64,000 bases of DNA from Escherichia coli. Its GTDB lineage: Bacteria > Pseudomonadota > Gammaproteobacteria > Enterobacterales > Enterobacteriaceae. Shown here in pieces: positions 11,952 through 19,872 of this stretch. The position numbers and the translations under genes were made by a program. The notes beneath the pieces are model-generated. The model saw only the letters and a program-made list of their open reading frames with translations. It did no database searches and was not told the origin of the DNA. Numbering within the stretch: the first letter of the stretch is position 1; every line of letters begins with the position of its first letter. The stretch is from the NCBI RefSeq assembly GCF_003334355.1, contig NZ_QOWP01000016.1; one strand, written 5' to 3'.

Positions 11952-13313
<1,362 letters not shown>

Positions 13314-13452
13314 AACGTGAGGAAATACCTGGATTTTTCCTGGTTATTTTGCCGCAGGTCAGCGTATCGTGAACATCTTTTCCAGTGTTCAGTAGGGTGC
13401 CTTGCACGGTAATTATGTCACTGGTTATTAACCAATTTTTCCTGGGGGATAA

Positions 13453-14592
13453 ATGAGCGCGGGAAGCCCAAAATTCACCGTTCGCCGCATTGCGGCTTTG
13501 TCACTGGTTTCGCTATGGCTGGCAGGCTGTTCTGACACTTCAAATCCACCGGCACCGGTCAGCTCCGTTAATGGCAATGCACCTGCAAATACCAATTCTG
13601 GTATGTTGATTACGCCGCCGCCGAAAATGGGGACGACATCTACAGCGCAGCAACCGCAAATTCAGCCGGTGCAGCAGCCACAAATTCAGGCTACTCAACA
13701 ACCGCAAATCCAGCCAGTGCAGCCAGTAGCTCAGCAGCCGGTACAGATGGAAAACGGACGCATCGTCTATAACCGTCAGTATGGGAACATTCCGAAAGGC
13801 AGTTATAGCGGCAGTACCTATACCGTGAAAAAAGGCGACACACTTTTCTATATCGCCTGGATTACTGGCAACGATTTCCGTGACCTTGCTCAGCGCAACA
13901 ATATTCAGGCACCATACGCGCTGAACGTTGGTCAGACTTTGCAGGTGGGTAATGCTTCCGGTACGCCAATCACTGGCGGAAATGCCATTACCCAGGCCGA
14001 CGCAGCAGAGCAAGGAGTTGTGATCAAGCCTGCACAAAATTCCACCGTTGCTGTTGCGTCGCAACCGACAATTACGTATTCTGAGTCTTCGGGTGAACAG
14101 AGTGCTAACAAAATGTTGCCGAACAACAAGCCAACTGCGACCACGGTCACAGCGCCTGTAACGGTACCAACAGCAAGCACAACCGAGCCGACTGTCAGCA
14201 GTACATCAACCAGTACGCCTATCTCCACCTGGCGCTGGCCGACTGAGGGCAAAGTGATCGAAACCTTTGGCGCTTCTGAGGGGGGCAACAAGGGGATTGA
14301 TATCGCAGGCAGCAAAGGACAGGCAATTATCGCGACCGCAGATGGCCGCGTTGTTTATGCTGGTAACGCGCTGCGCGGCTACGGTAATCTGATTATCATC
14401 AAACATAATGATGATTACCTGAGTGCCTACGCCCATAACGACACAATGCTGGTCCGGGAACAACAAGAAGTTAAGGCGGGGCAAAAAATAGCGACCATGG
14501 GTAGCACCGGAACCAGTTCAACACGCTTGCATTTTGAAATTCGTTACAAGGGGAAATCCGTAAACCCGCTGCGTTATTTGCCGCAGCGATAA
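13453..14592 (+). CDS. nlpD: Lipoprotein NlpD, LysM plus M23 peptidase-like domain (379 aa)
   Basis: ORF 379 aa, lipobox LAGCS, Gln/Pro-rich repeat linker, C-terminal M23-like region; the rpoS promoter is known to lie inside this gene. Confidence 0.93.
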
Positions 14593-14654
14593 ATCGGCGG
14601 AACCAGGCTTTTGCTTGAATGTTCCGTCAAGGGATCACGGGTAGGAGCCACCTT

Positions 14655-15647
14655 ATGAGTCAGAATACGCTGAAAGTTCATGATTTAAATGAAGATGCGG
14701 AATTTGATGAGAACGGAGTTGAGGTTTTTGACGAAAAGGCCTTAGTAGAAGAGGAACCCAGTGATAACGATTTGGCCGAAGAGGAACTGTTATCGCAGGG
14801 AGCCACACAGCGTGTGTTGGACGCGACTCAGCTTTACCTTGGTGAGATTGGTTATTCACCACTGTTAACGGCCGAAGAAGAAGTTTATTTTGCGCGTCGC
14901 GCACTGCGTGGAGATGTCGCCTCTCGCCGCCGGATGATCGAGAGTAACTTGCGTCTGGTGGTAAAAATTGCCCGCCGTTATGGCAATCGTGGTCTGGCGT
15001 TGCTGGACCTTATCGAAGAGGGCAACCTGGGGCTGATCCGCGCGGTAGAGAAGTTTGACCCGGAACGTGGTTTCCGCTTCTCAACATACGCAACCTGGTG
15101 GATTCGCCAGACGATTGAACGGGCGATTATGAACCAAACCCGTACTATTCGTTTGCCGATTCACATCGTAAAGGAGCTGAACGTTTACCTGCGAACCGCA
15201 CGTGAGTTGTCCCATAAGCTGGACCATGAACCAAGTGCGGAAGAGATCGCAGAGCAACTGGATAAGCCAGTTGATGACGTCAGCCGTATGCTTCGTCTTA
15301 ACGAGCGCATTACCTCGGTAGACACCCCGCTGGGTGGTGATTCCGAAAAAGCGTTGCTGGACATCCTGGCCGATGAAAAAGAGAACGGTCCGGAAGATAC
15401 CACGCAAGATGACGATATGAAGCAGAGCATCGTCAAATGGCTGTTCGAGCTGAACGCCAAACAGCGTGAAGTGCTGGCACGTCGATTCGGTTTGCTGGGG
15501 TACGAAGCGGCAACACTGGAAGATGTAGGTCGTGAAATTGGCCTCACCCGTGAACGTGTTCGCCAGATTCAGGTTGAAGGCCTGCGCCGTTTGCGCGAAA
15601 TCCTGCAAACGCAGGGGCTGAATATCGAAGCGCTGTTCCGCGAGTAA
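14655..15647 (+). CDS. rpoS: RNA polymerase sigma factor RpoS (sigma-38, 330 aa)
   Basis: ORF track starts 14619; ATG at 14655 gives [17 protein letters not shown]..., 330 aa. Confidence 0.95.
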
Positions 15648-15663
15648 GTAAGCATCTGTCAGA

Positions 15664-15694
15664 AAGGCCAGTCTCAAGCGAGGCTGGCCTTTTC
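15664..15694 (+). terminator. Intrinsic terminator downstream of rpoS
   Basis: GC-rich hairpin AGGCCAG...CTGGCCT followed by TTTTCT. Confidence 0.75.
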
Positions 15695-15704
15695 TGTGCA
15701 CAAT

Positions 15705-15734
15705 AAAAGGTCCGATGCCCATCGGACCTTTTTA
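15705..15734 (-). terminator. Intrinsic terminator for ygbN (also terminator-like on the plus strand)
   Basis: Hairpin GGTCCGATG...CATCGGACC flanked by A-run upstream and T-run downstream on the plus strand. Confidence 0.7.
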
Positions 15735-15740
15735 TTAAGG

Positions 15741-17105
15741 TCAAATTACCGCCCATACGCACCAGGTAATTAAGAATCCGGTAAAACCGAGAATGGTCGT
15801 TAACACTGTCCAGGTTTTCAGACCGTCTGCTACCGACAACCCCAGATATTTGGTCACAATCCAGAACCCTGAGTCATTAATATGTGACGCACCAAGCCCA
15901 CCAAAGCAGGCTGCCAGCGTCACCAATACGCACTGAATCGGATTCAATCCCATCACCGCTTCTGAGAGTAACCCGCCGGTTGTCAGTATTGCTACGGTTG
16001 CTGACCCCTGCGATGCACGCAGCGCCAGTGAAATAATAAATGCGGCTGGTAACAGAGGCAGGTCAATCATTTGTAGCATGTTGGCAAGGGCTTTGCCGAC
16101 GCCCGATTCCACCAGCACTTTGCCAAATACCCCTCCAGCACCAGTAACCAAAATCACTACCGCCGCAGTAGGAAGCGCTGAGCCCATAATGTCGCTGGTG
16201 TGTTGTAAGCTCCAGCCGCGACGTAAAGCCAATAACCAGAATGCCAGCACCAGCGCAATCATTAGAGCTACCATTGGTGAGCCGATCAGCTGTAGCGTAC
16301 CAAGCAGGGGATGCGAAGGCGGCATCAGTGTTGCGGAAACCGTACCCGCCATGATAATCGCGATAGGAATAACAATTAGCGAGGTGACCAGCGCGACGCC
16401 CGGTGGATTTATTTTATCGCTTAATTTTGTCGCGCCTTCCTCACTGGCCGGAGCCAGTTGCATCTGTTCCAGTACTTCTACTGACATCGCATATTGGCGC
16501 TTATTGATTATTTTCGCTGCAAAGTAGCCAACAACCCCTACGGGAATAGAAATCGCAATACCGATGATGGTTAGCCAGCCGATGTCTGCGTGGAGTAACC
16601 CCGCTGCGGCGACAGGGCCTGGATGCGGCGGTACCGCCACGTGAACAGTGAGCATGATCCCAGCGACAGGCAGGCCAAATTTGAGTGGCGATATTTTGGC
16701 AACCTTGGCAAAACCGTAAATGATTGGCGCAAGAATAATAAAGCCGACATCAAAGAAGACGGGAATACCGAGGAAGAACGCTGCCAGAGTCAGCGCAGCG
16801 ATAGTTCGTTTGTCACCTAACTTGCGACTGAAATAATTAGCCAGTGACTCTGCACCACCAGAGTGTTCGATCATACGCCCCAGCATAGCGCCCAGACCAA
16901 TAATAATAGTGACGGAACCAAGCACACCGCCCATCCCGGCGATCATCACTTTACCCACTTCGCCCGCCGGTATACCTGCCGCAAGTGCGACTAACAGGCT
17001 GACGAGGAGCAAAGCAACGAATGGTTGTACCTTTGCCTTGATGACCAGCAGCAACAGCATGATTACGCCAGCTAACGCAATGCATAACAATGTAATTGTG
17101 GACAT
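15741..17105 (-). CDS. ygbN: GntP-family permease, putative threonate/tetronate transporter (454 aa)
   Basis: ORF 454 aa, highly hydrophobic multi-TM; cluster context. Confidence 0.9.
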   Translation of the reverse strand: MSTITLLCIALAGVIMLLLLVIKAKVQPFVALLLVSLLVALAAGIPAGEVGKVMIAGMGGVLGSVTIIIGLGAMLGRMIEHSGGAESLANYFSRKLGDKRTIAALTLAAFFLGIPVFFDVGFIILAPIIYGFAKVAKISPLKFGLPVAGIMLTVHVAVPPHPGPVAAAGLLHADIGWLTIIGIAISIPVGVVGYFAAKIINKRQYAMSVEVLEQMQLAPASEEGATKLSDKINPPGVALVTSLIVIPIAIIMAGTVSATLMPPSHPLLGTLQLIGSPMVALMIALVLAFWLLALRRGWSLQHTSDIMGSALPTAAVVILVTGAGGVFGKVLVESGVGKALANMLQMIDLPLLPAAFIISLALRASQGSATVAILTTGGLLSEAVMGLNPIQCVLVTLAACFGGLGASHINDSGFWIVTKYLGLSVADGLKTWTVLTTILGFTGFLITWCVWAVI

Positions 17106-18613: not shown

Positions 18614-19872
18614 GATAAAAACTCTCTTTGGGCTCGTGAAAAAAAGGCGTCATCACCGAAGTTGCCAGATTTAAGGGCGAGTGAGACAGGCTTATCCAGT
18701 GCGTTTACCCACGGCACGCCGGGGGAAATGGTTGGGCCAATATGAAACCCTTTTATTCCCAGGCTCTGTGTGACTACGCCGGAGGTCTCACCGCCTGCGA
18801 CAATAAAGCGTGTCACGCCTTCCGCTGCTAACCGCGCCGCTAGTTGAGAAAACAGTGTTTCTACTGCCTGACTGGCTTTTTGTGCACCGTATTGCTGTTG
18901 AATTGCTGCCAATGCGTCAGTGCTGGCGGTGGCAAAAACCAGTGGAGCAAGTACACTTTCCTGGCCCAGAACCCACTCTGCCAGTTCGTGTGCATAAGCG
19001 GCCAGAGTTTCAATTGAGAGGCAGCGTGCCACATCAACTTCACGGGCTGGTGCAATTTGACGGTAATGTGCTACCTGGCGGTTGGTCATTTGAGAGCATG
19101 AACCGGAGAGCACTACGCCGCGCCCAGCGAGCGGACGCCCTGCTTTGCGAGCCTGGTTACCGTTTTCTTGCGCCCACTGCCGGGCCAGGCCAATCGCCAG
19201 ACCAGAACCGCCCGTTACCAGTGGGGCATCGCGCAAGGCTTCTCCCTGAATTTCCAGATGGTGTTCGGTCAGCGCATCAAGCACCGCGTAGCGGTAGCCC
19301 TCTTGCTGTAAGCGAGCCAGCTCTTGACGAACGGCATCCACACCTTGTTCGAAAACATGTGCCGAAACGACGCCGCAGCGCCCTGTGGATTGCGCTTCAA
19401 CCAGACGGGGAAGATAGCTGTCGGTCATGGGATTTACCGGGTGATGGCGCATCCCGGATTCGGCCAGCAGTTGATTCATTACGAACAAATACCCCTGATA
19501 AACCGTACGTCCGTTGACCGGCAGGGCCGGAGAGAAGACCGTAAACGGCGTGTCGAGAGCATCCATTAAGGCATCGGTAACCGGGCCAATATTACCTTTC
19601 GCCGTACTGTCGAAAGTAGAGCAGTATTTGAAATAGATCTGTTTGCAACCTTGCTGTTGCAACCAGCTCAGAGCCGCCAGCGATTGCTGTGTGGCTTCAA
19701 CCACTGGACAGGAGCGCGTTTTCAGGCTGATCACCAGTGCGTCGATTGCTTCCGGCATTTTACCTGTTGGAACACCGTTAATTTGTACCGTTGGTAGACC
19801 GTTTTCCACCAGAAAACTGGCGATATCCGTCGCGCCGGTAAAATCATCGGCGATAACGCCAATCTTGATCAT
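18610..19872 (-). CDS. otnK: 3-oxo-tetronate kinase (420 aa as read from first ATG)
   Basis: ORF 420 aa starting MIKIGVIADDFTGATD; start overlaps ygbJ stop (ATGA); exact start not verified. Confidence 0.85.
   Translation of the reverse strand: MIKIGVIADDFTGATDIASFLVENGLPTVQINGVPTGKMPEAIDALVISLKTRSCPVVEATQQSLAALSWLQQQGCKQIYFKYCSTFDSTAKGNIGPVTDALMDALDTPFTVFSPALPVNGRTVYQGYLFVMNQLLAESGMRHHPVNPMTDSYLPRLVEAQSTGRCGVVSAHVFEQGVDAVRQELARLQQEGYRYAVLDALTEHHLEIQGEALRDAPLVTGGSGLAIGLARQWAQENGNQARKAGRPLAGRGVVLSGSCSQMTNRQVAHYRQIAPAREVDVARCLSIETLAAYAHELAEWVLGQESVLAPLVFATASTDALAAIQQQYGAQKASQAVETLFSQLAARLAAEGVTRFIVAGGETSGVVTQSLGIKGFHIGPTISPGVPWVNALDKPVSLALKSGNFGDDAFFSRAQREFLS

Follow-up and report, generated by a model that had tools for sequence, protein, structure and literature searches.

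The N-terminal tether of NlpD, as encoded in the Escherichia coli window analysed here (the whole stretch of DNA under study, 64,000 nucleotides in length), contains a short array of 24-bp coding repeats whose copy number differs among E. coli and Shigella strains. We consider it probable that this array is an old 24-bp tandem amplification within a disordered tether, in which misalignment of the units has given rise to in-frame length alleles that are tolerated, and the best-supported reading of the repeat itself is that it serves as spacer material. The gene is well studied, and low-complexity disordered linkers of outer-membrane lipoproteins, the class into which the feature falls, are known; what is new, on a small scale, is the list of naturally occurring nlpD length alleles, among them the one-unit allele of Shigella and of O157:H7 clade 8-type strains. 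No earlier description of an nlpD VNTR or of a 48-bp nlpD deletion in E. coli was found in the searchable literature.

The nlpD locus and the anatomy of its repeat

The open reading frames of the window confirmed that the repeat lies in nlpD, upstream of rpoS, as the initial annotation had it. The gene order on the + strand is truD-surE-pcm-nlpD-rpoS, followed by ygbN on the - strand, and nlpD is thus found between pcm and rpoS with the main rpoS promoter, rpoSp, inside it. The two coding sequences of interest are:

13453..14592, + strand: nlpD CDS, an ORF of 379 aa from ATG 13453 (RefSeq 'murein hydrolase activator NlpD')
14655..15647, + strand: rpoS CDS, an intact ORF of 330 aa

Pfam analysis of the nlpD product identified a LysM domain at residues 123-165 (E 4e-12) and a Peptidase_M23 domain at residues 279-372 (E 5e-33), which is the LysM to Peptidase_M23 (LytM) order of NlpD, and a lipobox, LAGC, with Cys26 as the +1 Cys could be read from the translation. 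The protein is 99% identical to database clusters of E. coli NlpD. E. coli K-12 NlpD has the same length, the same domain order, the same pcm-nlpD-rpoS synteny and a Q/P-rich stretch in its N-terminal linker, and over 241 bp spanning the repeat only some three substitutions, none of them substantive, separate the window allele from K-12-derived strains. An activator of the amidase AmiC, NlpD is a lipoprotein of the outer membrane, and its loss in combination with an envC mutation leads to cell chaining (PMC5533458).

Two observations on gene starts were made at this locus. Current RefSeq/PGAP records begin nlpD at TTG 13498, 45 nt downstream of the classical ATG 13453 (364 versus 379 aa). With this start the lipoprotein signal peptide loses its positively charged n-region (KFTVRR), whereas the classical ATG is preceded by GGGGGA and gives a product in which this signal peptide is complete; the shorter 364-aa annotation looks wrong. 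For rpoS, a mechanical ORF list places the start 12 codons further upstream, at the in-frame ATG 14619. Codon 33 of rpoS is Glu in the window; amber or Gln33 rpoS variants occur in K-12 laboratory lineages.

The peptide quoted in the initial annotation corresponds exactly to residues 66-98 of the 379-aa ORF, and the repeat does encode a Gln/Pro-rich linker. Its period had been given as 18 bp, but the true period is 24 bp (8 codons), of which the 18 bp encoding QQPQIQ are the conserved core of each unit and the last 6 bp a variable tail encoding PV, AT and PV in turn. Tandem Repeats Finder (TRF) reported a single array in nlpD (13646-13715, period 24, 2.9 copies, 71% matches). In codon register the array occupies 13648-13743, rather than 13660-13760 as first placed, and is made of three units (13648-13719) and a degenerate fourth (13720-13743):

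13648..13671, + strand: repeat unit 1 (u1), CAGCAACCGCAAATTCAGCCGGTG, encoding QQPQIQPV, residues 66-73
13672..13695, + strand: repeat unit 2 (u2), CAGCAGCCACAAATTCAGGCTACT, encoding QQPQIQAT, residues 74-81
13696..13719, + strand: repeat unit 3 (u3), CAACAACCGCAAATCCAGCCAGTG, encoding QQPQIQPV, residues 82-89; the unit nearest to u1 (3/24 differences)
13720..13743, + strand: degenerate unit 4 (u4), CAGCCAGTAGCTCAGCAGCCGGTA, encoding QPVAQQPV, residues 90-97; contains the CAGCCGGT microhomology of the -72 bp deletion

To call these units nearly identical, as had been done, is an overstatement. Besides the three differences between u1 and u3, u1 and u2 differ at 7/24 and u2 and u3 at 9/24 positions (62-87% identity), and the 18-bp cores differ pairwise at 2-4 of 18 positions. 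Within the three QQPQIQ cores, the four positions that vary are all third-codon positions with synonymous changes, a pattern that points to an old duplication in which the peptide was kept. No exact direct repeat is longer than the 11-bp CAACCGCAAAT, found at 13651 and 13699 (48 bp apart); CAGCCGGT occurs at 13663-13670 and 13735-13742, in u1 and u4 respectively (72 bp apart).

The 24-bp periodicity exceeds chance. Specifically, the array contains 44 lag-24 self-matches out of 72, a value reached by none of 2,000 codon shuffles of the whole CDS (mean 32.9, sd 1.6, max 40) and by only 2 of 2,000 shuffles confined to the codons of the Q/P-rich segment, which preserve the local composition. The nlpD array is also the top-scoring tandem repeat of the 64-kb window. 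Another small tandem repeat is present at 19757-19803 (24-bp unit, 2.0 copies, 83% matches, TRF score 64).

Natural length alleles and their recurrence

The unit count was surveyed in 5,426 complete RefSeq E. coli genomes, 5,420 of which matched a 241-bp query placed around the array; the other six gave zero match to this query, which suggests that the 5' region of nlpD is lost or disrupted in them. A 111-bp query covering the array (13640-13750) matched 5,409 genomes, 5,350 of them at ≥80% coverage. The standard array length was found in approximately 98.7% of genomes by a coverage test that would hide longer alleles. Nine genomes that matched the 241-bp but not the 111-bp query may carry -57 bp or other alleles, and 21 genomes at 90-95% identity in the nlpD queries are probably divergent lineages.

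The count is not invariant across these genomes. An in-frame -48 bp deletion that leaves one QQPQIQ unit was found in 59-60 or so complete genomes (~60/5,420): the best 60 matches to an allele-specific 63-bp query were all full-length and in a single piece, and, in agreement with this figure, 59 genomes showed reduced coverage with the 111-bp query and 59 lay at 80-90% identity with the -72 allele query. The in-frame -72 bp deletion, with its junction at CAGCCGGT, was present in exactly two genomes, Z142-6 and USDA-ARS-USMARC-49610. Its carriers were counted with a 45-bp junction query; a 169-bp query for the same allele was non-discriminating because wild-type genomes match it in two pieces at 100%. 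Lastly, a +48 bp duplication, which brings the array to five units and creates a hybrid u3/u1 unit where the copies join, was found in one genome, PapRG-04-4 (baboon). Synthetic allele queries detected neither a -24 nor a +24 bp allele in the 5,426 complete genomes, and the 24-bp register is therefore not the recombining one. The length variation by slippage anticipated in the initial annotation thus stands in so far as length alleles exist and recur, but they are rare (~1.3%), in frame, and confined in these genomes to 48- and 72-bp registers.

A wider protein collection added a -9 bp allele (376 aa), a -57 bp allele (360 aa, 7 contigs), further copies of the -72 bp allele (355 aa, 38 contigs) and a +72 bp allele (P0003). 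The one-unit allele was found there in Shigella dysenteriae, S. flexneri and S. boydii, as proteins of 363 or 348 aa from 20-30 contigs each. The collection also contained a 405-aa Escherichia NlpD with seven QQPQIQ units, a recent expansion in which the DNA is built from 2.5 copies of a 72-bp super-unit at 96% identity:

1688-1864 of contig RDNP01000004.1 (L009, GCA_026283405.1, a divergent Escherichia assembly): seven-unit array

In this assembly a MarR-family gene stands downstream of rpoS in place of ygbN. Overall, QQPQIQ copy numbers of 1, 3, 5, 6 and 7 were observed, and every array allele seen is a multiple of 3 bp (-9, -48, -57, -72, +48, +72). A separate length change was noted in the second, LysM-to-LytM linker of NlpD, which is rich in Thr, Ser and Pro: the 340-aa E. 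coli variant P0030 (Logan assembly) carries a 39-aa in-frame deletion with its junction at the repeated peptide 'VAS(Q/T)...', and the second linker is therefore also length-polymorphic.

The -48 bp allele has arisen more than once. Judged by the sequence within 100 bp of the array, its carriers belong to at least four flanking haplotypes, and their residual unit is of two kinds, mostly u3-type but pure u1-type in PEC145, which implies different breakpoints. Within O157:H7, EDL933 (L006) has three units and TW14359 (L005) one, although both carry the same O157-specific flanking substitutions. The one-unit allele was found in the O157:H7 strains TW14359, EC4115, SS17, SS52 and JEONG-1266 and in many further genomes of O157 size. 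TW14359 and EC4115 are strains that we take to be spinach-outbreak isolates of clade 8. [quoted passage not shown] The 48-bp deletion may consequently be of use as a simple PCR-sizeable marker to tell clade 8-type O157:H7 strains (TW14359, EC4115, SS17) from EDL933-type strains.

Assemblers can collapse repeats, and length variants in a repetitive region could in principle arise as artefacts of assembly or sequencing. At 96 bp, however, the array sits well inside single reads, the same -48 allele recurs within one clade across many complete genomes that were sequenced independently (TW14359, EC4115, SS17, SS52 and others) as well as in the Shigella proteins, each represented by its 20-30 contigs, and the junctions are clean and in frame. 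An artefactual origin is accordingly extremely unlikely.

Copy-number differences among strains and the repeated origin of the -48 allele could also be taken as signs of a contingency locus, in which the repeat would switch or tune nlpD, or rpoS by polarity, at high frequency. Phase variation of this kind is hard to reconcile with a unit that is a multiple of three and with alleles that are all in frame, which leaves no room for on/off switching, nor could the array act on promoter spacing from 311 bp away from the -35 hexamer of rpoSp. The divergence of the units (62-87% identity), an exact repeat of no more than 11 bp and the uniformity of some 98.7% of 5,420 genomes likewise argue against it. 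We regard this reading as effectively refuted and give it next to no credence.

Comparison with other genera bears on whether the QQPQIQ peptide has a function of its own. E. fergusonii NlpD has three units, as in E. coli. NlpD proteins of Salmonella, Citrobacter, Kosakonia, Enterobacter, Lelliottia, Atlantibacter and other genera are 78-89% identical overall and contain one PQIQPV motif, after which the sequence is unrelated or a degenerate Q/P/V/T-rich stretch. The repeat segment varies more than any other part of the protein and is bounded by a conserved 10-residue stretch and by QPVQ(M/T)ENGRIVYNR. As other genera carry a single motif in a hypervariable stretch, the array is best described as an amplification or homogenisation of an ancestral motif in the Escherichia lineage. 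The exact conservation of the QQPQIQ peptide despite synonymous drift could nevertheless reflect a specific motif function rather than a mere spacer, for example as a functional module whose copy number matters, such as a multivalent weak binding site with peptidoglycan, LolA or a component of the divisome or Tol-Pal as its partner. The perfect retention of the core in three copies with diverged codons, the three units common to E. coli and E. fergusonii and kept in ~98.7% of genomes, and the weak enrichment of the N-terminal linker alone at midcell (PMC5533458) are in keeping with such a module. The single motif of other genera, where NlpD is otherwise 80-88% identical, in the most variable region of the protein, the one-unit alleles fixed in lineages as successful as O157:H7 clade 8 and Shigella, and the existence of a seven-unit allele all speak against it, and we hold a copy-number-dependent module to be unlikely.

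Position of the repeat relative to rpoS

The initial annotation had proposed that sequence variation in nlpD can be relevant to rpoS expression, while noting that the repeat lies in the 5' part of the gene, and that the promoter should be mapped relative to the repeat. The published positions of rpoSp relative to the rpoS ATG are -601/-596 for the -35 element, -578/-573 for the -10 element and -568/-566 for the start site (PMC1852560). With the rpoS ATG at 14655, these positions were mapped onto the window, where both hexamers are present with a 17-bp spacer:

14054..14089, + strand: rpoSp, main rpoS promoter inside nlpD, with -35 TTGCGT at 14054-14059, -10 TATTCT at 14077-14082 and start at ~14087-14089

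Both hexamers thus lie outside the array, whose end at 13743 precedes the -35 hexamer by 311 bp and the start site by approximately 345 bp. A consensus promoter scan of 13250-14700 called no promoter, rpoSp itself being missed because its hexamers match 8/12 consensus positions, which is below the threshold of the tool. An Rfam scan of 12500-16000 returned chance-level matches only.

The idea that the repeat acts in cis on rpoS expression, as DNA or as RNA, would have in its favour the location of the main rpoS promoter within nlpD and the existence of nlpD-rpoS read-through transcripts (Lange and Hengge-Aronis 1994, cited in PMC3391293). Against this stand the distances given above and the lack of an Rfam match. 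In addition, the nlpD-rpoS fragments used for complementation begin at -657 relative to the rpoS ATG (PMC1852560); the corresponding primer sequence is found at window position 13998, downstream of the array, and the fragments that complement rpoS therefore do so without the repeat. The indels are in frame, so that polarity on the read-through transcripts is not to be expected from any of them. In the Salmonella Typhimurium UK-1 genome, the corresponding nlpD linker is shorter by 12 bp, an in-frame deletion that the authors likewise placed outside the rpoS promoter and judged unlikely to affect rpoS (PMC3391293). We conclude that a link of the repeat to rpoS expression is not supported and that a cis-acting element is very unlikely. 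With the array outside the promoter and every allele in frame, the repeat carries little weight for rpoS biology.

A probable spacer within the NlpD tether

NlpD was described by Tsang et al. (2017) as consisting of a signal sequence, an N-terminal linker, a LysM domain, a second linker and a degenerate LytM domain; both linkers were predicted to be disordered, the N-terminal one being unstructured according to DISOPRED, and the N-terminal linker on its own gave the weak midcell enrichment referred to above (PMC5533458). El Rayes et al. reported a disordered N-terminal linker in about half of the E. coli outer-membrane lipoproteins and found that Lol-dependent sorting is affected by how long and how disordered the linker is (bioRxiv 10.1101/2021.01.05.425367). 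Specifically, when NlpD residues 29-64 were deleted, approximately 60% of NlpD stayed in the inner membrane, and complementation of the envC nlpD chaining phenotype was impaired (bioRxiv 10.1101/2021.01.05.425367). This deletion stops just before the repeat, and residues 66-97 stayed in place. The composition and hypervariability of the repeat stretch are consistent with a disordered linker. An AlphaFold2 model of NlpD computed from a 16-sequence alignment had a mean pLDDT of 31, too poor to bear on disorder. The distance from Cys26 to LysM, approximately 96 residues in the window allele, falls to 80 with the -48 deletion and to 72 with the -72 deletion.

On this basis we propose the following scheme. 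The array lies in a low-complexity, Gln/Pro/Val-rich part of the N-terminal tether that runs from the lipidated Cys26 to LysM (approximately residue 123). This tether would act as a long unstructured spacer while the Lol system hands the lipoprotein to the outer membrane, and would allow the LysM and degenerate LytM domains to reach septal peptidoglycan. Such a job is generic, and tether length would therefore be only loosely constrained. Synonymous drift among the three units would make slippage inefficient; u1 and u3, with their 11-bp exact core and 21/24 identity at a distance of 48 bp, could still misalign occasionally, and u1 and u4 could do so 72 bp apart through the shared CAGCCGGT. Replication misalignment or unequal recombination, as we infer from the registers, would then yield in-frame contractions (-48, -72) and expansions (+48, +72), which would be tolerated and at times fixed in clones such as O157:H7 clade 8 and Shigella lineages. 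The presence of these alleles in otherwise successful clones suggests that they are nearly neutral.

The recurrence of the one-unit allele could instead reflect selection, if linker length were a tuning knob and the loss of 16 aa altered outer-membrane sorting or the reach of LytM; we consider this improbable. Were it true, AmiC activation, cell separation or envelope properties would be changed in O157:H7 clade 8 and in Shigella lineages. The natural one- to seven-unit alleles form a ready-made series for relating linker length to lipoprotein sorting and function.

Among known systems, the closest counterparts are the linkers of outer-membrane lipoproteins such as RcsF, Pal and NlpD itself, with which the repeat stretch shares its position after the lipobox, its low complexity and its variable length. 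The array also resembles coding VNTRs with copy-number polymorphism in that it gains and loses sequence in frame between short direct repeats, but its polymorphism, at a combined frequency of approximately 1.3% in complete genomes, is far lower than that of the loci used in MLVA typing. The UK-1 linker deletion is a change of a similar kind but of a different size, 12 bp as opposed to a 24-bp unit with recombining registers of 48 and 72 bp. Lastly, the C565T hotspot at rpoSp of Pseudomonas fluorescens SBW25 is also a mutation-prone site in an nlpD gene with an embedded rpoS promoter (PMC11838912). That hotspot is a point mutation within the promoter and depends on transcription from rpoSp (PMC11838912), whereas the E. 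coli repeat lies more than 300 bp upstream of rpoSp and would change by misalignment of its repeats.
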